Shown here: positions 1-14,442 of the stretch, one piece after another
Layout of the letters: every line of letters starts with the position of its first letter
Numbering within the stretch: the stretch's first letter is position 1
NCBI GenBank assembly: GCA_966250015.1
Contig: CBINFS010000017.1
Coordinates: 3,142 to 67,141 of the forward strand
Source of the DNA: an uncultured bacterium
GTDB taxonomy: Bacteria; Bacteroidota; Rhodothermia; Rhodothermales; DASSAV01
DNA: 64,000 nucleotides
Reading direction: 5' to 3'
Position numbers and translations under genes: made by a program
Notes under the pieces: generated by a model
Seen by the model: only the letters and a program-made list of their open reading frames with translations
Database searches by the model: none
Told to the model about the DNA's origin: nothing

Positions 1-512
1 AGGAAGATCACCGGATCGTCGTCGCGGATTGCCGATTTCAACAGCCCCTTCGCATCGTCCGGATTCGACGGCGCGATGACCTTCAAGCCAGGAAAGTACG
101 AGTACAACGCCTCGGTCGACGTGTTGTGCGTCGCCGCAAGCTGGCCGGCTGCGCCGTTCGGACCGCGGAAAACGATAGGCACCTTGAACTGGCCGCCGGA
201 CATGTACCGGATCTTCGCCGCGTTGTTGATGATCTGATCGATTCCGACGAACGAGAAGTTGAACGTCATGAACTCGATGATCGGCCGGAGCCCGGCAAGA
301 GCGGCGCCGACGCCGAGGCCGGCGAATCCGCCTTCTGAGATCGGGGTGTCGATGACGCGGCGCGGGCCGAACTTGGCGAGCATCCCCTCGCTCACCTTGT
401 AAGCCCCATCATACTCGGCAACCTCCTCCCCCATCAGGAAAACGGTTTCGTCGCGCTCCATCTCTTCGATCATGGCCGCGCGAATCGCCTCACGAAATTG
501 AAGTTCCGCCAT
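1..512 (-). CDS. pdhB: Pyruvate dehydrogenase E1 beta subunit (N-terminal part; runs off window start)
   Basis: Manual translation from ATG at 512: [41 protein letters not shown]...[11 protein letters not shown]...EFMTFNF; lies downstream of pdhA. Confidence 0.93.
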
Positions 513-647: not shown

Positions 648-1832
648 CTACGCCAAAAACGGGTAGTCCTTCTGCGAGTACACGTCCTCGTAGATCGACT
701 CGAGGGGCGGGTACGGGCTCTTTTCGGCGAAATCGACGGCTTCATTGACCTCCTGCTTGACCTCGTCGTCGATCTTATCCAGCGACTCGTTGTCGCTAAG
801 CTTCCGCTCGAGCAAGTAGCCCTTCAGGCGAAGGATAGGATCGTCGTTTTTCTTTCGTTCGAGCTCTTCTTTCGTCCGGTACTTGCCCGGATCGCTCATG
901 GAGTGCCCGCGGTAGCGATAGGTGCGCACTTCCACCAGCGAAGGACGGCCCTGGCGCGCCATTTCGACGTGATCCTTCATCGCCCGGTAGACGCTGAAAA
1001 CGTCCATCCCGTTGACGAGTGCGCCCGGCATGTCGTACCCGATGGCCTGCTTGTAGAAGTCCGGCTCGGCGGCGGCACGGTGCGTCGCCGTACCCATCGC
1101 ATACTGGTTGTTCTCGATCACGAGAACGATCGGCAGCTCATAGAGTCCCGCCAGGTTAATCGCCTCGTGGAAGGCGCCCTGCTGGACGGCCCCGTCACCG
1201 AAGAAGCACAGGCAGACCCCGTCGTCCTGTTTATACTTGTGCGCAAAGGCGATGCCGACCCCCAGAGGGATGTGCCCGCCGACGATCCCGTGGCCTCCGA
1301 AGAATCGCTTCTCGGCACTGAAGAAGTGCATCGACCCGCCTTTCCCCCGCGAGCAGCCGTCGATCTTGCCGAAGAGCTCGGCCATCCCGGCTTTCGAACT
1401 CATCCCGAGCGCCAGTGCAAGGCCGTGATCGCGATATGCCGTTATCACCGAGTCGTGACCTATCCGCAAGGCCTGCACCGATCCCGTCGATACGGCCTCC
1501 TGACCGATGTACAGGTGCAGGAACCCTGCAATTTTCTGCTTGCCGTACATCTGCGCCGCACGCTCTTCGAAACGGCGCTGCAGCAGCATGCTGCGGTACA
1601 TCGCCAGCACTTCGTCGTCCGACAACCCGAGTTCCTTGTGGTCGTTGGCTTCAGCCTGGTACGTTTTGAACGATACCTGGACGTCGATTCTGTCCGGCAG
1701 GATTACGATCTCCCCGTCCGGACGATCCGGGCGCTCAACGCCGGCTGCCGTCTCCGCCGCTTCACCTTTGGCTTCCGCCGTCTCCGCCATGTTCACCGGA
1801 CCGTTTTTTTGCGTTTTACTCGCCATATTCAT
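648..1832 (-). CDS. pdhA: Pyruvate dehydrogenase E1 alpha subunit
   Basis: GFLHLYIGQEA, GKGGSMH, GDGA...N TPP motif, TYRYRGHSMSDP. Confidence 0.96.
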   Translation of the reverse strand: MNMASKTQKNGPVNMAETAEAKGEAAETAAGVERPDRPDGEIVILPDRIDVQVSFKTYQAEANDHKELGLSDDEVLAMYRSMLLQRRFEERAAQMYGKQKIAGFLHLYIGQEAVSTGSVQALRIGHDSVITAYRDHGLALALGMSSKAGMAELFGKIDGCSRGKGGSMHFFSAEKRFFGGHGIVGGHIPLGVGIAFAHKYKQDDGVCLCFFGDGAVQQGAFHEAINLAGLYELPIVLVIENNQYAMGTATHRAAAEPDFYKQAIGYDMPGALVNGMDVFSVYRAMKDHVEMARQGRPSLVEVRTYRYRGHSMSDPGKYRTKEELERKKNDDPILRLKGYLLERKLSDNESLDKIDDEVKQEVNEAVDFAEKSPYPPLESIYEDVYSQKDYPFLA

Positions 1833-2177: not shown

Positions 2178-2927
2178 TTGACCACGGCTCCGGACATATC
2201 GTCGCTGCGCCCAATCGTTGTCATCCCGACGTATAACGAGGCGGAAAACATTCCGTTGGTCCTCGAGCAGGTGCTGGCCCTTCCCGAGCTCTTTTCGATC
2301 GTCGTCGTCGACGACGGCTCTCCCGATGGCACCGCCGACCGCGTCCGGGAAACACAAAAGCGCTTCCCCGACCGCCTCTTCCTCATCGAACGCCCCGGCA
2401 AACAGGGACTCGGGACTGCCTACATCCAAGGTTTCCGTTTTGCCCTCGAAAAAGGGTTTGATCTCATTTGCGAGATGGACGCCGACCTCTCACACAACCC
2501 GAACGACCTGCTCCGCCTCATCGTCCCGGTTATACGCGGCGAAGCCGACCTGACCATCGGGTCGCGCTACGTCGACGGGGTCCGTGTGATCAACTGGCCG
2601 CTCTCGCGCCTGATCCTGTCGTACGGCGCCAGCATCTACACACGCGCCATTACCCGGCTGCCCGTCCACGACGTCACGGCAGGCTTCAAGTGCTTCCACC
2701 GCCGCGTCCTCGAAGCCCTCGACCTCGACCGTGTGAAATCCAACGGCTATTCGTTCCAGGTCGAGCTGAACTACCGCGCCTGGCGTAAGGGTTTCCGAAT
2801 CAAAGAGATCCCGATCATCTTTACCGAACGCGCCGAAGGCCGCTCGAAAATGAGCAAAGCCATCGTCCGTGAGGCTGCGCTAAAAGTCTGGGAGCTCCGC
2901 CTCCGCGCCCTCATCGGAAGGCTGTAG
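2178..2927 (+). CDS. Polyprenol-monophosphomannose synthase (GT2, DPM1-like)
   Basis: IPTYNEAENI, VDDGSPDGT, GLGTAY, MDADLSH, GYSFQVE. Confidence 0.9.
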   Translation: MTTAPDISSLRPIVVIPTYNEAENIPLVLEQVLALPELFSIVVVDDGSPDGTADRVRETQKRFPDRLFLIERPGKQGLGTAYIQGFRFALEKGFDLICEMDADLSHNPNDLLRLIVPVIRGEADLTIGSRYVDGVRVINWPLSRLILSYGASIYTRAITRLPVHDVTAGFKCFHRRVLEALDLDRVKSNGYSFQVELNYRAWRKGFRIKEIPIIFTERAEGRSKMSKAIVREAALKVWELRLRALIGRL

Positions 2928-3142: not shown

Positions 3143-4384
3143 ATGCCCACGTATCGGCACCTCATCACCCCCTCCGAAGGAGAAACCATCACCCTCGAAA
3201 ACGGCCGGCTCCACGTACCCGACCACCCTATCATCCCCTTCATCGAAGGCGACGGCACAGGCCCCGACATCTGGCAGGCATCCGTCCGCGTATTTGACGC
3301 CGCGGTCGAAAAAGCCTACGGTACGAACCGCAAGATCGTGTGGTTCGAAGTTTTCGCCGGCGAGAAGGCGAAAAACCGCCTTGACGAATGGTTGCCCGAC
3401 GACACGCTCGAGGCCATCCGCCATCACCTCGTCGCGATCAAAGGCCCGCTGACCACCCCGGTCGGCGGCGGCATCCGTTCCCTCAACGTGGCCCTCCGGC
3501 AGGAGCTCGACCTCTTCGCGTGTGTCCGCCCCGTCCAATACTTCCCGGGCGTCCCTTCTCCTGTTCGGCACCCCGAAAAAGTGGACATGGTGATCTTCCG
3601 CGAAAACTCGGAAGACATTTACGCGGGCATCGAGTACCCCAAGGGCAGCCCGGAAGTGCAAAAGCTCATCCGGTTTTTGCAGGATGAGCTGGGGGTTAAA
3701 AAGATCCGTTTCCCCGAAACGAGCGGCATCGGGATCAAGCCGGTATCGGAGGAGGGCACGAAGCGCCTTGTCCGCTCCGCCTTAAAGTATGCCATCGAAA
3801 ACAACCGACCCAGCGTGACGCTCGTCCACAAGGGGAACATCATGAAGTTCACGGAAGGCGCGTTCCGCGATTGGGGATATGAGGTCGCCCGGCAGGAGTT
3901 CGGCGCCGAGCCGATCGACGGCGGCCCGTGGTGCCGCCTGCCCGGTGGGATCGTCGTCAAAGACGTCATCGCCGACGCGTTCCTCCAGCAGATCCTCACC
4001 CGCCCCGACGAATACAGCGTCATCGCAACCCTGAACCTCAACGGCGACTACATATCGGATGCGCTCGCCGCACAGGTCGGAGGCATCGGTATCGCACCGG
4101 GAGCCAACATCAACTACCTTACCGGACACGCCGTCTTCGAGGCAACCCACGGAACCGCACCTAAGTACGCCGGCCAGGACAAGGTGAATCCGGGTTCCGT
4201 CATCCTCTCCGGCGAGATGATGTTCCGCTATTTGGGTTGGAACGAAGCCGCCGACCTGATCCTGGACTCCCTCCGTAAAACCATCGCGCAAAAACGCGTC
4301 ACGTACGACTTTGAACGCCTCATGCAGGGCGCGACGCTCCTGAAGACGAGCGAGTTCGCCACCGCCATGATCGAAAATATGTAA
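3143..4384 (+). CDS. icd: NADP-dependent isocitrate dehydrogenase (E. coli type)
   Basis: [58 protein letters not shown]. Confidence 0.96.
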
Positions 4385-4578
4385 CGGTGTAAACCCCTCG
4401 TTTCACGAGAATTTAGGCCTCGACAATAAAAGTCGTAACGGGGTTGTAATTCGGTGGCGCCTGTCTGAAATCTTTGGAACTGCATTCACAAAAACCTCAT
4501 ATAAGCCACTGTGTGATGAGGGATGGAGGTTTGCTCGTCGATCCGGCGGGATGACGAGCAAATCTGCAGGGCTGTGCG

Positions 4579-4625
4579 GGAAGCGCCGGCACCAGTAGCA
4601 ATACGGGTGCCGGCGTTTCCTATTT
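4579..4625. terminator. Hairpin between convergent icd and DUF3524 genes
   Basis: ggaagcgccggcacc...ggtgccggcgtttcc stem with an inner gta-GCAA-tac loop, followed by tattt. Confidence 0.6.
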
Positions 4626-4637
4626 ATACGATTCCAA

Positions 4638-5807
4638 TCAGGCGCCCGACGCGACGCCCACGGCCGGAACCTTGCCGGCCACCTCTTCGAAAAGCTGGTC
4701 GTAGACCGCAACGTGCGTGCGCCAATCCAGACCTGCCGGGATCCCGCGGAGCGTGGAATACGGCAGCGGACGCTCCTTGCCTTTCAGGATGTCGTACAGG
4801 ATTTGAAAAAGATCCTCCTCATCCTCGTACAGGATGGGCGCATGGAGAAGCGGCCGGTGAAGCGACTCGGGTATGAGCTCGGGATAGCTCAGCCGGTTCG
4901 GCAGGAGCGGGTGGCAGCCGCAGTAGATGGCCTCCATCACCGCGATCCCGAAAAACTCGTGTATGGCGGTGGAAACGATCAGATCCGCCCGGTGCAGCAG
5001 CCGGCTGTACTCTTCGAAGTCCTCTGCGTACCCGTAGTGAATGATACGCTCGGCGTACCGTTCAAAAGCCCGTTCGAACTCGTACGGCTTCTCCTCGAAG
5101 TGTTCGCCTGCGAGGATCAGGCGGAAGCTACAACCGGCGTCGTCGAGGCGGTTCATCACGCGGAAGAAGGCGTCCGGATTCTTGTCGTACTCCCATCGCT
5201 GATTCCAGAGCACGATCGGCGGTTTCATGCCCGGCCCCCAGTCGCGCGCAGGATATTCCGATGCGTACCGGTCGTGCGCTTGCAGGTCCATTCCCAGGTG
5301 AATGACCGAGCTCTTCTCGCGGACGGTCTGCACCGTATTCATGTGCGTGAAATCGGGGAAGGTCCTGAGCAGCATTGGCAGGGCCTCCATGAACTCCCCG
5401 TAATGAAAGTGCGAGTTGAAGACAACGTGATCGGCTGCGAGGCACGAGAGATAGTTGATGTATCCGTATGTGTAATCCCGTTCGACCCCTGCAGGTAGGG
5501 GGTAGGTCAGCTGGTTCTCGTGGAAATAAAGGACGACGGGGACCCCGGCGAACTGCCGCCTCGTCAAGGCCAGAAAAGCCGGAAGGTTGACCATATTCGA
5601 GGCGAGAATGAGGTCGGGTACGAATCCGTCCTCGAACGCCTGGATCGACTTCTTGGCCATCGTGACGGCGCCACCGTGCATACGCCACTTCCAGAAACGG
5701 GCAGCCATCGTGATGGCATGGTACGTATGCGCGCTGTGACGGATTAAGCCGTCGACAAAATTCCGGTGCGAACCGCCGTACCACGGCTCCAAAACGAGAA
5801 TATTCAT
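4638..5807 (-). CDS. DUF3524 / GT4-fold glycosyltransferase, GTDC1 (QTMAN)-like
   Basis: LEPWYGGSH, WKWRM, LYFHENQLTYP, RDYTYGYIN, VVFNS, RWEYDKNP, STAIHEFFG, EAIYCGC, YPEL. Confidence 0.88.
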   Translation of the reverse strand: MNILVLEPWYGGSHRNFVDGLIRHSAHTYHAITMAARFWKWRMHGGAVTMAKKSIQAFEDGFVPDLILASNMVNLPAFLALTRRQFAGVPVVLYFHENQLTYPLPAGVERDYTYGYINYLSCLAADHVVFNSHFHYGEFMEALPMLLRTFPDFTHMNTVQTVREKSSVIHLGMDLQAHDRYASEYPARDWGPGMKPPIVLWNQRWEYDKNPDAFFRVMNRLDDAGCSFRLILAGEHFEEKPYEFERAFERYAERIIHYGYAEDFEEYSRLLHRADLIVSTAIHEFFGIAVMEAIYCGCHPLLPNRLSYPELIPESLHRPLLHAPILYEDEEDLFQILYDILKGKERPLPYSTLRGIPAGLDWRTHVAVYDQLFEEVAGKVPAVGVASGA

Positions 5808-5872
5808 AAAGACAGTCGGAGTATGGTCTGGACAGGCTGAACCGCCGAGCGTATCGATCCGGATCCTTCAAC

Positions 5873-6118
5873 TCATTCAGCGCGCTGTTCCTCTTCAAGC
5901 AGGCGTTTCAGGGATTGCTCCTCTTCGAGCGTGGACGGCCGCACGATCGATACCGACCGGATTTGCAGACTCTCGCGAAGCGCTGGGTCTCGCACCTCTT
6001 CAGCGGTGATCAGTCTTTCCTCACCCGGACCCAACCGTAAAAGACGGGTATTCATCTCTATCACCACCGGGCGCTCGCTCGTATTTTTAACTAACATACC
6101 GCGCCGCTTGGTCGCCAT
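5873..6118 (-). CDS. Small hypothetical protein (81 aa), likely co-transcribed with the glycosyltransferase
   Basis: ATG start with GAGG upstream, protein-like composition, 65 bp gap to the next gene on the same strand. Confidence 0.65.
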   Translation of the reverse strand: MATKRRGMLVKNTSERPVVIEMNTRLLRLGPGEERLITAEEVRDPALRESLQIRSVSIVRPSTLEEEQSLKRLLEEEQRAE

Positions 6119-6329
6119 GCCGAAACCTCTTGCTACGTGAGACGGAGACTCTTATTCGGGACCTTACGCCTGTCTATGGCCGCTCAAAGGCCATCGTGAC
6201 GACGGCGAGGCCCCCTGACAAAAGGAACGATCAGTATACGACATTTCGCAATATGGTGAAGCGGCTCACTCCGCCCTTTTTTCAATCGTATAAACGTTTT
6301 TCACGATTTGACGCTCCATTACGCCTCTC

Positions 6330-7043
6330 ATGACGAAACTTTCGGCCATCGGCAGGCTTCGCACCGTCCTTGACGCCGGTCTGGGCATCCTCTATCCGGC
6401 AAGCTGTGCCGGGTGTGGAATCCGGCTCGACCGGTGGGACGCGTCTCTCTGCCCGGAGTGCCGGAAGGACGTCGATACCCCCGACCCCAATGCCGTGCTC
6501 GCGCAGCCGGCATCGCTACAGACCCCTTGCCCGATCGATGCGGCCTGCGCCCTGTGGTGGATCAGTCACGACTCGCCGCTCCGAAAAATCCATCACAGCC
6601 TGAAATACGGCAACCGCCCCTGGTACGGTCCCGCCCTCGGGAGGCAGATGGCCGAAACGTTCCGCTCCCTGCTGGCGCAATATCCCCTCGACGTGGTGGC
6701 ACCGATACCGCTCCACCGCGCGCGGTACCTGGAACGGGGCTACAACCAGAGCGCGCTGCTTGCAGAAGGTGTCGGCGCTGCTCTTGGCCTGCACGTGCAC
6801 CCTCACGTGCTCGTCCGGCACCGTGCCACGAGGTCCCAGACCAGTCTATCCAAAGCAGAGCGGCTGAAAAACGTCGCCTCGGCGTTTACCGTATCGCCTG
6901 GATACGACGTCAAAGGCCGCCGCGTCTTGCTCGTGGACGATCTCCTGACAACCGGCGCCACCGCCGTTTCGGCGGCGACGACCCTTAAGGATGCCGGCGC
7001 CTCGTGCGTCGTGCTGGCAACCCTGGGTATCGCCGAACCCTGA
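6330..7043 (+). CDS. ComF family protein (zinc ribbon + PRTase)
   Basis: CAGC...CPEC, LKY, ERGYNQS, VLLVDDLLTTGAT. Confidence 0.92.
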   Translation: MTKLSAIGRLRTVLDAGLGILYPASCAGCGIRLDRWDASLCPECRKDVDTPDPNAVLAQPASLQTPCPIDAACALWWISHDSPLRKIHHSLKYGNRPWYGPALGRQMAETFRSLLAQYPLDVVAPIPLHRARYLERGYNQSALLAEGVGAALGLHVHPHVLVRHRATRSQTSLSKAERLKNVASAFTVSPGYDVKGRRVLLVDDLLTTGATAVSAATTLKDAGASCVVLATLGIAEP

Positions 7044-7050
7044 CGCAGCG

Positions 7051-7683
7051 CTACAGGTAGTCCTCGATCCGAATCACCTGGTCGCAGGACGAAGCCTCGT
7101 CGGGGTCATTCGTGGCGATCACGACGATCCGGCCGTCTTTTTGCTGCGATTCGACGATACGGCGAACCATCGCCAGCCCTGCAGCATCCAGGTTGGTCGA
7201 GGGCTCGTCGAGCAGCAACATCGCGGGGGACGACAGGCACGCCGCCGCGTATTTCACGCGCTGCTTCATGCCCGACGAAAACGTCGCCACCGGTTCGTCT
7301 GCCCGGCGCGATAGCTCCACCGTTTCGAGAACGGCTTCGATCCGGCGTGTGGCGTCGCGGATCCGCCGGAGCCGGGCAATGAACTGCAGATTCTCTCGCG
7401 CAGAAAAACCGTCGTAAACGTTCAAGTACGGCGCTACGAGCCCGGCTTGCAACGGGTGTTCTTCCGTCGGGACGAGGGCGCCGTCCATATGCAGCGTAAC
7501 CGTGCCCGTCGTTGGTGATAGCACCCCGCACAGAATCCGGAGGAGTGTGGACTTACCCGAACCGTTTGCACCGGTCACCGCAAGCGATGCACCCCCGGAC
7601 ACGGTAAAGGATAACCTGCGGAACAAGACCCGGCGCCCGAACCGCTGCCCCAGGTTTTCGGCAACCAGCTGCAACGTTTTCAT
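7051..7683 (-). CDS. ABC transporter ATP-binding protein, CcmA-like
   Basis: Walker A GANGSGKST, FSSGMKQR signature, LLLDEP; no permease adjacent. Confidence 0.85.
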   Translation of the reverse strand: MKTLQLVAENLGQRFGRRVLFRRLSFTVSGGASLAVTGANGSGKSTLLRILCGVLSPTTGTVTLHMDGALVPTEEHPLQAGLVAPYLNVYDGFSARENLQFIARLRRIRDATRRIEAVLETVELSRRADEPVATFSSGMKQRVKYAAACLSSPAMLLLDEPSTNLDAAGLAMVRRIVESQQKDGRIVVIATNDPDEASSCDQVIRIEDYL

Positions 7684-9383: not shown

Positions 9384-9941
9384 ATGCGCCCGCACGTCCT
9401 CGGCATCGACGACGCCCCGTTCGTCAAAGGACACGGCCGGGAGGTGCCCGTCATCGGCGTCATGATGGAAGGTGCTCAGCTAGTCGAGGGCGTCGCCGTG
9501 ACTTCGTTCCCAGTCGATGGGCCCGGCGCGACGGGTTTTCTCGTCAGTTGGATCAATGGAATGTCGTGGCACGACTCGCTTCAGGCAATCGTGCTGGGCG
9601 GGATCACGATTGCAGGCCTGGGAATGGTAGACATCGTCGAGCTGGCGGCAGGAACGGGCATCCCCGTTCTTTCTGCGACGAGAAAGAATCCCGGGGACAA
9701 TACACTCGAACGGGCTCTACGCGCCGCCGGCTTTGAGGACCGGCTCGCGATCCTCCGGCGAACACCTCCCGCCGTAAAGCTGGCTCAGGGATTCTACCTC
9801 GCGTGGGCAGGCACCGATCAGCGCCACGCCGAAGCCGTCGCTGGCGCCACGATGCTAAAAGCATCACTCCCCGAGCCGCTACGTATAGCGCACCTCATCG
9901 GTGCGGCGCTCGTCAATGGCCAGTCACGCGGCCGCGTGTGA
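9384..9941 (+). CDS. DUF99 / UPF0215 family (endonuclease V-like fold)
   Basis: VLGIDDAPF, VDG, LGGITIAG, LPEPLRIAHLIG. Confidence 0.85.
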   Translation: MRPHVLGIDDAPFVKGHGREVPVIGVMMEGAQLVEGVAVTSFPVDGPGATGFLVSWINGMSWHDSLQAIVLGGITIAGLGMVDIVELAAGTGIPVLSATRKNPGDNTLERALRAAGFEDRLAILRRTPPAVKLAQGFYLAWAGTDQRHAEAVAGATMLKASLPEPLRIAHLIGAALVNGQSRGRV

Positions 9942-11172: not shown

Positions 11173-11757
11173 TTACATGCCTGGCGGCGGCACGGGCGTT
11201 TCGATGCCCATACCTGTCGTATCCTGCATCATACCCGAGGTGTCGTCCATCATCCCCGACGTGTCGTCCATCATGTCCGGGGCGCCGGCGCCGGGTGTAA
11301 TGCTGATCGACTCCGCGACGATCACCGGCTCCTCTGCTTCGAGCTCGACGTCAAGCTCGGGATCGAGGTCCAGGCCATATTCCTGCTCGATGTCGGCGAC
11401 GGTTGATTGACGTACCGTCCCGGTCACTTGAACCATGTCGGACTGATTGAAGCCCATAAACCCGGAGACACCGGCGGTCGCGCTGGGTGGAGCGACCACG
11501 ATGATCCCGCGCCCCAGGCCGTCACTGCCCATCCGGAAGGCCGTCGAGCCGTAGGCCTCTTCGACCTCCCCCGTCAGCGTAACGGTCTGGCCCATGTACT
11601 GGTCAGGATTGTCCGTGATGGCGTCTACGGTGACCCCAGCCTCCATCTCCTCCGTTTCTTCCGTCTGGCAACCTATCAGGCCAACCGTCAGGATCACCGC
11701 AAACGCGAAGGTAAAGGGGATTCTCATCCGCCCGAATACCGTTTTTAACCTTTCCAT
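11173..11757 (-). CDS. Acidic lipoprotein, probable OB-fold, with Met-rich tail repeats
   Basis: Lipobox LIGC; NPDQYMGQTVTLTGEV...VQVTGTV pattern; MMDDTSG x2 + MMQDTTG. Confidence 0.8.
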   Translation of the reverse strand: MERLKTVFGRMRIPFTFAFAVILTVGLIGCQTEETEEMEAGVTVDAITDNPDQYMGQTVTLTGEVEEAYGSTAFRMGSDGLGRGIIVVAPPSATAGVSGFMGFNQSDMVQVTGTVRQSTVADIEQEYGLDLDPELDVELEAEEPVIVAESISITPGAGAPDMMDDTSGMMDDTSGMMQDTTGMGIETPVPPPGM

Positions 11758-12072: not shown

Positions 12073-14442
12073 ATGCACGTTTCTGGTAGTGGTATTTACT
12101 CTGACGTCGCCCTGTTTGGAAAAGATCCTACCCCGCGCCTGCTCGACGTCCAGCCGGTGCGGAACGGGTCGGACGAGCAGCCGGCCACCGTCAGGGTTTA
12201 CCGCAGAAGCGAGGACCTGCAAACCGTAAATGTCGACGAGGAGCGCATCTTCCCCTTCTTTTTCCTCTCCGACGTCCAGCTCCTGAAGCCGTTTCAACGG
12301 GACCGTTTTCGATACAATGAGCTGGAGGGGGAGAATCCGTATCGCTTTCTCGTCGTGTTCGACACCTGGAAGGACTACTGGGACGCGGTGCGGCTGATCG
12401 AGCGATTGACGGGCCAGACCGGCAGGCGGTCGGACGCCCTCTACCTGATCTCCAGCCCCGCCCAACAATACCTGATGCAGAGCGGCAGGACCTGCTTCAA
12501 GGAAATGGCGCTCAACGACCTCCACCGGATGCAGCTCGACATCGAGGTCTCGACCGAACACGGGTTCCCGAACGCGTCGAGGAAGGAGGACGAGATCATC
12601 ATCGTCGCACTCTCCGACAACCGGGGACGCCTCCACACGCTCGACAGGCGCGAGATGTCCGAGCCCGAGCTGCTCCGCGAGCTGGTCCGGCTGATCCGCG
12701 AATGGGATCCGGACGTCATTGAAGGCCACAACGTCCTCGCGTTCGATTTCGCCTACCTGATGGCACGTTGCGAGCGGTTCGGCGTGGCGTTTGCCGTCGG
12801 TCGCGACGGCTCGGTTCCCCGAACCTTCCAGGCGAACATGCGATTTGCCGAAAGGTCGGTCGAATACCCGGCCATCGAGATCGCCGGCCGGCACGTCATT
12901 GACACCTACTTCCAGGTGATGGCGTACGACGTCGTCAAGCGTGACATGCCAAGCTACGGTCTGAAAGCCGTAGCCCGGTACTTCGGCTTCGCCCGGAAAG
13001 ACCGGACGTACGTCGAGGGGAAGGAGATCGCACGCCTGTGGAAAACCGACCCGGAGCGACTGATCAGCTACGCACAGGACGATGTCCTCGAGACAGAAAA
13101 GCTCGCCCGGCACCTCTCGGGGTCTTCGTTCTACCTGACGCAGATCGTGCCGATGACCTATGGCCAGGTGGCCAGAACGGGACCGGCAGCCAAGATCGAG
13201 AGCCTGTTCGTGCGTGAGTACCTGCGCAGGCGGCACAGCATCCCCCGCAGTGAATGGGGCAGCCAGGCAGCCGGAGGGTACACCGACGTCTTCGTGACGG
13301 GCGTCCTCGGACCCATCGTCTACGCCGACGTCGAGAGCCTGTACCCCTCGATCATGCTGAACTACGGCGTAAAGCCCAGGTCGGACGCCCTCGACCTCTT
13401 CCCCACCCTGCTTCGACGCCTCACCGATCTGCGGTTCGAAGCCAAACGAAAAATGAAGATGGCGGCTTCAGAGGAAGAGCGGAGCGAGCTCGACGCACGG
13501 CAATCGACCTACAAGGTGCTGATCAACTCCTTCTACGGCAGCCTGGGCTTCACCCACGCCGTCTTTAACGACTTCGCCGAAGCCGACCGCGTGGCCAGGA
13601 CCGGCCAGCAGCTCCTCCGGCAGATCATCGGCCTCATCCGGCAGTACGGTGGTCTCGTCGTCGAGGTCGACACCGACGGCGTCCTGTTCGTGCCACCCGA
13701 AGACGTCCGGGGCGAAGAAGCGGAACAGGCCTTCGTGAGACGGCTAAGCGACGAGATGCCCCCCGGCATCAACATCGGGTTCGACGGCCGCTTCCAGCGG
13801 ATGCTGTCGTACAAGAAGAAAAACTACGCGCTGCTGACCTACGATGGGCGGCTGCGGTTCAAAGGGTCCTCGCTCGTATCGCGATCGAGCGAGCGGTTCG
13901 GCCGCCACTTCGTCCGCGAGGCAACCCGCCGCCTGATCGACGAAGACATCAAGGGCCTGCACGACCTCTACATCGAGACGCGTGAGCGGATCATCGCCCA
14001 CGAGTGGGAAAGCGTGGACGACTTTTCGCGGACGGAGACGCTGAAAGACCCCGTTGCCCGGTATCTCGAAGACGTGGAAGCGAACCGCCGCACGCGCGCG
14101 GCATCGTACGAGCTGGCGATCCGGCAGGCTGCCGAAACGGGCATCCCCCCGCGTGTGGGCGACCGGATCAGCTATTACATCACGGGCGGATCGGCGGGCG
14201 TGGTGGGCTTCGAAAATGCCCGCTTCGCCGACGAGTGGGACCCCGCCAATCCGGACGAAAACACCGCGTTCTACCTCAAACGCCTCGACGAGTTTGCCCG
14301 CAAGTTCGAACCGTTCTTTACCGAACACGACTTCCGCCTGATATTTTCACCCGAAGATCTCTTCGGCTTTTCAGCGGAAGGGATTAGATTGCAGCGCCGT
14401 GAGCAGGCGATCGATTCGCTCGAAGGAACCACCCCCTTCTGA
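12073..14442 (+). CDS. Family B DNA polymerase with 3'-5' exonuclease domain
   Basis: Exo motifs DIEV, GHNVLAFDF, YAQDD; pol motifs ADVESLYPSI, KVLINSFYG, VDTDG. Confidence 0.93.
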   Translation: MHVSGSGIYSDVALFGKDPTPRLLDVQPVRNGSDEQPATVRVYRRSEDLQTVNVDEERIFPFFFLSDVQLLKPFQRDRFRYNELEGENPYRFLVVFDTWKDYWDAVRLIERLTGQTGRRSDALYLISSPAQQYLMQSGRTCFKEMALNDLHRMQLDIEVSTEHGFPNASRKEDEIIIVALSDNRGRLHTLDRREMSEPELLRELVRLIREWDPDVIEGHNVLAFDFAYLMARCERFGVAFAVGRDGSVPRTFQANMRFAERSVEYPAIEIAGRHVIDTYFQVMAYDVVKRDMPSYGLKAVARYFGFARKDRTYVEGKEIARLWKTDPERLISYAQDDVLETEKLARHLSGSSFYLTQIVPMTYGQVARTGPAAKIESLFVREYLRRRHSIPRSEWGSQAAGGYTDVFVTGVLGPIVYADVESLYPSIMLNYGVKPRSDALDLFPTLLRRLTDLRFEAKRKMKMAASEEERSELDARQSTYKVLINSFYGSLGFTHAVFNDFAEADRVARTGQQLLRQIIGLIRQYGGLVVEVDTDGVLFVPPEDVRGEEAEQAFVRRLSDEMPPGINIGFDGRFQRMLSYKKKNYALLTYDGRLRFKGSSLVSRSSERFGRHFVREATRRLIDEDIKGLHDLYIETRERIIAHEWESVDDFSRTETLKDPVARYLEDVEANRRTRAASYELAIRQAAETGIPPRVGDRISYYITGGSAGVVGFENARFADEWDPANPDENTAFYLKRLDEFARKFEPFFTEHDFRLIFSPEDLFGFSAEGIRLQRREQAIDSLEGTTPF

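Follow-up and report, generated by a model that had tools for sequence, protein, structure and literature searches.

Do bacteria attach a sugar to the queuosine of their own transfer RNAs (tRNAs), as the animal enzyme QTMAN (GTDC1) does, and do some of them engage a second protein for the task? The question is raised by two neighbouring genes in a 64,000-nucleotide stretch of DNA from an uncultured bacterium of the order Rhodothermales (assembly GCA_966250015.1, contig CBINFS010000017.1), the whole of which is referred to as the window below. One of them encodes a 389-residue glycosyltransferase of the QTMAN family, the other an 81-residue protein of its own family. The preferred reading, to which a probability of roughly 0.45 is assigned on the strength of sequence and model comparisons, is that the pair constitutes a two-gene operon for a queuosine-tRNA hexosyltransferase and an order-specific accessory subunit. 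On the minus strand the two open reading frames (ORFs) follow each other at 6118-5873 and 5807-4638:

5873..6118, minus strand: 81-residue orphan protein, proposed accessory subunit of the glycosyltransferase (from linkage, conservation and a structural model)
5808..5872, minus strand: spacer of 65 nucleotides between the small gene and the enzyme gene; the terminator scan gave no terminator-like site on this strand
4638..5807, minus strand: 389-residue retaining GT4-type glycosyltransferase of the QTMAN family (DUF3524), from Pfam, an AlphaFold model, Foldseek and motifs; N-domain at residues 2-173, C-domain from about residue 190, RWEYDK at 204-209, EX7E at 284-292

Family and fold of the glycosyltransferase

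The frame at 4638-5807 on the minus strand translates without a stop into 389 residues. All eight motifs that an initial annotation had named are found in this protein in the order given there, namely YGGSH (residues 10-14), WKWR (39-42), LYFHENQLTYP (93-103), ERDYTYGY (109-116), SCLAADHVVFNS (121-132), RWEYDKNP (204-211), STAIHEFFG (279-287) and EAIYCGC (292-298). The membership in the DUF3524/GTDC1 family that was deduced from them is solid, as the Pfam model QTMAN_N (PF12038, formerly DUF3524) is matched over profile positions 1-168 of 168, i.e. its whole length, with an E-value of 2.5e-60 and 203.6 bits against a cut-off of 25. Such a match is far beyond what chance would be expected to give. 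The C-terminal half is recognized by Glycos_transf_1 (PF00534, E 1.5e-13, residues 191-312), and none of the NCBIfam equivalog models reaches its cut-off on the enzyme. The gene for the QTMAN_N protein is present in a single copy in its own genome.

The AlphaFold model of the enzyme, computed with 64 homologues in the alignment, is of high confidence (predicted local distance difference test, pLDDT, 94; predicted template modelling score, pTM, 0.91) and displays a GT-B fold. The nearest solved folds according to Foldseek are GlgM (E 1e-14), MshA, BshA, PglA, PimA and tetrahydrobiopterin glucosyltransferase, with sucrose-phosphate synthase also among the closest; the matches to GT4 structures range from E 1e-14 to 1e-11, with template modelling scores of about 0.65-0.69 and identities of 12-16%. 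The EX7E signature reads EFFGIAVME (residues 284-292). Residues H14, H96, N131 and S132 are invariant among the 64 homologues, R204 and K209, both in the RWEYDK motif, are conserved in at least 90% of them, and the Rhodothermales enzymes retain the invariant residues of the family.

Sequence and profile searches with the enzyme found no solved QTMAN structure. Profile searches against solved structures returned relatives for the C-domain only, the GDP-mannose-dependent PimA (GDP, guanosine diphosphate) among them, and the N-domain is thus not a generic GT4 acceptor domain. In GT-B enzymes in general, the acceptor site is usually located in the N-domain. The conserved QTMAN_N domain therefore argues for an acceptor related to that of the animal enzyme. 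The enzyme is acidic, with an isoelectric point (pI) of 5.8.

An anti-phage or conflict glycosyltransferase was tried as an assignment and rejected: the match to GT4-conflict (PF20706) is marginal and confined to the C-domain (26.5 bits against a cut-off of 26, profile positions 193-306 of 385), PADLOC gave no match to the enzyme, and the neighbouring genes are housekeeping genes.

A small gene coupled to the enzyme gene

As initially annotated, the small gene directly precedes the enzyme gene in the same orientation, 65 nucleotides away. The arrangement was followed through 80 related loci, all from Rhodothermales and Balneolales, 78 of which include DNA upstream of the enzyme gene, and homologues of the small gene were identified by tblastn with the 81-residue protein. 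Of the 78 loci, 74 have a homologue immediately 5' to the enzyme gene and in the same orientation. The median distance is 45 nucleotides, and in 17 of these 74 loci the stop of the homologue overlaps the start of the enzyme gene by 4 nucleotides. With the family profile, the small gene was detected in 39 of 40 Rhodothermales genomes, in one copy each, the genome without it being G308. In all 18 genomes that this set shares with the sample of 301 genomes described below, the two genes share contig and strand, and the small gene is 25-334 nucleotides away from the match to the N-domain of the enzyme. The pair stays intact as its flanks vary: ComF accompanies it in 54, an ABC ATPase in 52, isocitrate dehydrogenase in 32 and a GT2 gene in 27 of the 80 loci. 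From this strict linkage of the genes we infer a partnership of the two proteins. The small-partner idea of the initial annotation thereby has strong support at the genetic level, limited to the order Rhodothermales. Two histories fit: an origin of the small gene within Rhodothermales once they had separated from Balneolales, or its loss in the latter.

The small gene is a real, conserved orphan gene. Substitutions among 44 sequences amount to 0.41, 0.29 and 0.64 at codon positions 1, 2 and 3, respectively, which is a coding pattern, and thirteen residues of the protein are invariant, among them R5, G7, M8, N12, R25, R54, R60 and P61, with T38 near-invariant. In the structural model (pLDDT 88), five short strands are accompanied by two short helices and a further helix at the C-terminus. 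Its charge is unevenly distributed: the five-strand beta core (residues 1-62) is basic with a pI of 11.1 (family median 10.4), and the C-terminal helix (residues 63-81) is acidic with a pI of 4.5 (family median 4.1).

A profile search of 5.8 billion proteins yielded 226 members of the small-protein family. Those that carry names are all labelled 'hypothetical' and come from Rhodothermales or Bacteroidota, save for one JGI record with an unrelated enzyme name. No Pfam domain was reported among the 120 matches listed, a scan of 44 sequences against Pfam member by member gave no shared match, and Pfam, NCBIfam and PADLOC hold no family for the 81-residue protein. Likewise, the profile retrieved only two designed proteins from the Protein Data Bank (E 0.007-0.013), Foldseek with the model returned no match at E ≤ 0.001 (best E 0.34), and the best Z score of a wide structural search was 5.7, below the level typical for models without a clear match. 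Such a lack of matches among solved folds is not a demonstration of a new fold. A 78-residue ORF adjoining the enzyme gene in one further locus (L100) was tried as a relative of the small protein and rejected, the hhalign probability being 0.5%.

Substrates in the genome and queuosine co-occurrence

The genome to which the window belongs (G000) is 98.6% complete. The check for queuosine genes suggested in the initial annotation returned tgt, queA and queG; queC is present as well, and queH was not found in this genome. There is one gene each for tRNA-Asp (anticodon GTC), tRNA-Tyr (GTA), tRNA-His (GTG) and tRNA-Asn (GTT), with G at position 34, and a ManC-like mannose-1-phosphate guanylyltransferase is encoded that scores 343.8 bits, short of the cut-off set for the bifunctional model. 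Because the queuosine genes, the GUN tRNAs and the ManC-like gene are all present, queuosine-tRNA and GDP-mannose are plausible constituents of the cell. As a separate observation, the only tRNA-Tyr(GTA) gene shares a contig with queA and follows it some 2.2 kb downstream (C71:8391-11692).

In a sample of 301 genomes from the phylum, queA was found in every one. Carriers of the enzyme that lack the queuosine pathway, which the initial annotation named as a refuting result, did not appear, with no carrier devoid of queA (78 of 78), yet the result is non-discriminating within the phylum as every non-carrier has queA too.

The genome also encodes a protein resembling GluQRS (YadB), at C26:23065-23883, with 285.7 bits against a cut-off of 276.7. 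Genes of this kind were found in 27 of 41 Rhodothermales genomes, 23 of them scoring above the cut-off.

Distribution and relatives of the enzyme

The best matches to the enzyme are named Rhodothermales and Bacteroidota proteins with 70-89% identity. Altogether, 7166 of 7999 scored candidates are homologues at E ≤ 1e-5, and the family comprises 1074 clusters at 50% identity with E ≤ 1e-30. Thermodesulfobacteriota, Actinomycetota and Pseudomonadota are the commonest phyla of its Atlas clusters, and no eukaryotic sequence occurs among the matches listed. Bacterial members go by the name of tRNA-queuosine alpha-mannosyltransferase family in Atlas, in Pfam and in names derived from UniProt. The description as an undescribed system was thus too strong for the enzyme, whose bacterial homologues have already been catalogued in thousands and named automatically. 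By sequence, the enzyme is to be seen as a further member of a catalogued bacterial family, and the putative small partner is the new part. Searches by tblastn with the enzyme gave no match in GenBank phages or in plasmids, and viral contigs scanned with the family alignment gave two weak matches only, both to the C-domain alone (L088 and L089).

The QTMAN_N domain is present in 78 of the 301 sampled genomes of the phylum, and these are strongly concentrated in one class: 73 of 75 genomes of Rhodothermia in the wide sense, the genome of the window included, carry it, as against 5 of 226 others. Most of the sampled Balneolales genomes (family f12) have two matches to the QTMAN family, and three of them (loci L090-L095) hold two full-length paralogues each. 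One paralogue, about 51-53% identical to the window enzyme, is encoded directly after mutL; the other, about 41-44% identical, is found near two genes for Rrf2 regulators, and in L090 a gene for an EEP-family phosphatase overlaps its end. A quick maximum-likelihood tree with 76 members of the family (midpoint root) places the Rhodothermales enzymes in a group with the paralogue that follows mutL and with sequence P0128 (100 in the Shimodaira-Hasegawa-like approximate likelihood ratio test, SH-aLRT). The second Balneolales paralogue is placed elsewhere in this tree, beside a Spirochaetota sequence. The two Balneolales enzymes might serve two acceptors or transfer two sugars.

Outside Rhodothermales, the neighbourhoods of the enzyme gene are mutually unrelated and include mutL, Rrf2 regulators, the EEP-family phosphatase and a GT4 gene. 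The last is seen in a locus from another class of the phylum (L099:4047-6244), where the QTMAN-family gene overlaps the downstream GT4 gene by 4 nucleotides. This overlap hints at two successive sugar transfers or at a non-tRNA pathway.

Neighbouring genes and transcription unit

The surroundings of the gene pair in the window are as follows:

3-512, minus strand: pyruvate dehydrogenase E1 beta
648-1832, minus strand: pyruvate dehydrogenase E1 alpha
2178-2927, plus strand: GT2 polyprenyl-phosphate glycosyl synthase-like gene
3143-4384, plus strand: NADP isocitrate dehydrogenase, convergent with the enzyme gene
4585..4614, unstranded: inverted repeat GCCGGCACC / GGTGCCGGC with a stem of 9 base pairs and a loop of 12 nucleotides, read from the sequence
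6330-7043, plus strand: ComF
7051-7683, minus strand: CcmA-like ABC ATPase
9384-9941, plus strand: Endo_dU family protein of 185 residues (PF01949, E 4.8e-37)
11173-11757, minus strand: ORF of 194 residues without a Pfam match at E ≤ 1e-4
12073-14442, plus strand: family B DNA polymerase with exonuclease domain, 789 residues

Beyond the ABC ATPase, SodC, ThiE, the Endo_dU-family protein, a signal peptidase and the family B DNA polymerase are encoded. The inverted repeat sits between the convergent genes for the enzyme and isocitrate dehydrogenase and is possibly the end of the transcription unit; the terminator scan is silent on this candidate because it has no T run.

The initial annotation had also pointed to a DPM1-like, GDP-mannose-using gene two genes away. 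The GT2 gene at 2178-2927 does lie at that distance, beyond isocitrate dehydrogenase and on the opposite strand. Among NCBIfam models, it is best matched by those for polyprenyl-phosphate glycosyl synthases (PpgS with 77 bits, and AglJ), in every case far below the cut-off, so the label DPM1-like is fair but does not extend to a particular sugar. The support it was thought to lend to a common pathway did not hold up. As a pathway partner the gene was rejected, since each of the 27 loci with this gene has it on the opposite strand and the other 53 of the 80 lack it; it is a synteny neighbour only, outside the two-gene unit.

DNA near-identical to positions 4000-7100 of the window was found in metagenome runs labelled soil, biofilm, anaerobic digester, landfill and sediment, and also in six RNA libraries from digester and compost. 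Four of these libraries were compared and differ from the window by four to five single bases. In library X17, one contig (5764-6533) spans the 5' end of the enzyme gene together with the small ORF; in library X14, the locus is part of a 28.8-kb contig. The RNA-library contigs are no proof of transcription, because the latter contig leaves DNA carry-over possible.

Proposed function and alternatives

We propose that this member of the QTMAN/GTDC1 family is a soluble GT-B glycosyltransferase of the retaining kind. It would take a hexose from a nucleotide sugar, with mannose and GDP-mannose as the likeliest pair by homology, and attach it to a hydroxyl on the queuosine cyclopentenediol ring at position 34 of a tRNA with a GUN anticodon. 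This acceptor is suggested because the family-defining N-domain is conserved and the substrate available, and glycosylation of queuosine-tRNA is a reasonable expectation from homology. The target would be tRNA-Asp by analogy, any of the four GUN tRNAs being possible. The small protein would be an invention of Rhodothermales, produced together with the enzyme. Its arginine-rich beta core would help to keep the tRNA on the acidic enzyme, and its acidic tail would contact the enzyme or compete with RNA. Alternatively, its helper role could consist in regulation of the enzyme. A more far-reaching scheme, which is doubtful, would have Rhodothermia glycosylate their own queuosine throughout: the Rhodothermales by means of a two-subunit enzyme whose 81-residue subunit, from a new family, recruits the tRNA, and the Balneolales with paralogues that perhaps produce two glycosyl-queuosines, comparable to the mannosyl- and galactosyl-queuosine of vertebrates.

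Several observations weigh against the proposal. In the literature library searched, nothing was found on bacterial QTMAN-family members or on their activity. According to Pfam and NCBIfam annotation, no queuosine or tRNA-modification gene stands beside the enzyme gene in the window, and none was found near it in 11 loci of other lineages; in two of these 11, a second GT4 gene is nearby (overlapping in L099, two genes away in L096), which also fits a glycan or small-molecule pathway. The co-occurrence of enzyme and queuosine is uninformative in the phylum because queA is found in 301 of 301 genomes and the enzyme in 78 of 301. Moreover, with a GluQRS-like gene present, tRNA-Asp may already carry another decoration. 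The queuosine of this tRNA may then have two competing decorations, and where GluQRS glutamylates tRNA-Asp the glycosyltransferase may use another GUN tRNA or share tRNA-Asp.

Further such points concern the small protein. The profile found its gene in 0 of 41 genomes from other orders of the class, in which the enzyme is present, and the orthologous Balneolales loci L084 and L085 are without it even by unfiltered profile search. Within Rhodothermales, the enzyme is kept with no trace of the small gene in an unclassified Rhodothermaceae metagenome-assembled genome (L066) and in one Salinibacter locus (L075), and a second Salinibacter locus (L079, 6586-6987) retains no more of the small gene than a vestige of the C-terminal half. 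The enzyme family at large does not require the small protein. No fused form of small protein and enzyme was found, which is weak evidence. Finally, compensation of charge is a tentative idea, the partner-less Balneolales paralogue A being even more acidic than the Rhodothermales enzymes (net charge -19 versus -14).

Some of these findings would be accommodated if the enzyme glycosylated an acceptor other than tRNA, either a lipid or glycan, or else a small soluble compound bearing a diol or cyclitol, such as a 7-deazaguanine nucleoside or base in free form or a metabolite of the thiol or osmolyte type; the tRNA function in animals would then be a later specialisation. Among the closest folds, MshA, BshA, GlgM, sucrose-phosphate synthase and tetrahydrobiopterin glucosyltransferase use small soluble acceptors, and an acidic protein is unusual as an RNA binder. 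The absence of a linked queuosine or tRNA gene in the neighbourhoods examined and the overlapping GT4 gene in L099 point in the same direction, as do Atlas clusters of the family with Actinomycetota as the commonest phylum; many members of this phylum are not known to have queuosine. Still, the domain on the acceptor side is what defines the family common to animal QTMAN, it is matched end to end and is not of the generic GT4 kind, and queA is there in each of the 78 carriers. We consider an acceptor other than tRNA unlikely, if a serious contender.

Two other explanations concern the small gene. It could be functionally unrelated to the enzyme, a stable co-transcribed neighbour in Rhodothermales; the enzyme does without it in the sister orders, some Salinibacter-type loci retain the enzyme gene although the small gene has decayed there, and no fusion of the two has turned up. 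However, the small gene never occurs apart from the enzyme gene: all 74 matches and all 18 genomes show it as a single copy next to the enzyme gene and in the same orientation. In 17 loci the two genes overlap by 4 nucleotides, and their linkage outlasts rearrangement of both flanks. We regard a functionally unrelated neighbour as quite improbable. Conversely, the small protein could itself be the acceptor, glycosylated by the enzyme on a conserved arginine, asparagine or threonine in the manner in which EarP rhamnosylates EF-P. Such a role would account for the strict one-to-one association with a small beta protein whose residues R5, N12, R25, R54 and R60 are invariant and whose T38 is nearly so, but the orthologous Balneolales enzyme has no such neighbour, the Rhodothermales enzymes keep the residues that are invariant in the family, and there is no other pointer to protein glycosylation. 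We regard it as very improbable.

Significance and comparison with known systems

If queuosine-making bacteria do add a sugar, a bacterial origin would follow for modification and enzyme alike, and a genetically tractable system would become available for the role of the queuosine sugar. Since some Rhodothermales grow in culture, mass spectrometry of nucleosides offers a direct test of the question; for the mannosyl-queuosine of animals, the transition monitored is m/z 572 to 163. The small partner would represent a new protein family whose sole consistent genomic context is a QTMAN-like enzyme and, should it bind tRNA or the enzyme, would reveal how a glycosyltransferase of acidic character is directed to RNA.

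With animal QTMAN, the enzyme has in common the Pfam architecture of QTMAN_N followed by a GT1 C-domain, the retaining GT4-type fold with EX7E and a likely donor, GDP-mannose, that is available in the host cell by virtue of the ManC-like gene. It differs in being a bacterial protein of 389 residues with an activity and tRNA target that are predicted only, and in having, in Rhodothermales, a small-protein partner; to our knowledge, no small partner protein is known for animal QTMAN. The accessible portion of the literature describes QTMAN as a GDP-mannose-dependent enzyme and two glycosyl-queuosines as animal tRNA modifications. A conserved lysine in the donor-binding region is a possible further likeness, K209 here being a candidate counterpart of K296 in the human enzyme. 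Lysine 296 is required for the formation of mannosyl-queuosine by human QTMAN (bioRxiv 10.64898/2026.06.28.735034).

GluQRS (YadB) resembles the proposed system in that it acts on the queuosine of tRNA-Asp and has a homologue in the same genome. In bacteria, it adds glutamate to this nucleoside, and we know of no other characterised bacterial decoration of the queuosine cyclopentenediol. Its fold and chemistry are unrelated, as it is a paralogue of aminoacyl-tRNA synthetases, and it is patchy in Rhodothermales (27 of 41 genomes) in contrast to the nearly universal glycosyltransferase pair. The GT4 enzymes MshA, BshA, PimA and GlgM share the GT-B fold, and PimA a profile match in the C-domain, whereas identities are 12-16% and no solved structure was found to be related in sequence to the N-domain. 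The logic proposed here, a catalytic subunit with a non-catalytic partner that positions the tRNA, would be that of QTRT1/QTRT2 and of the methyltransferases that work with Trm112. The preprint cited above presents QTRT2 as such a tRNA-positioning partner (bioRxiv 10.64898/2026.06.28.735034). The small protein is related to these partners neither in sequence nor in fold, and its binding is put forward here as a proposal.

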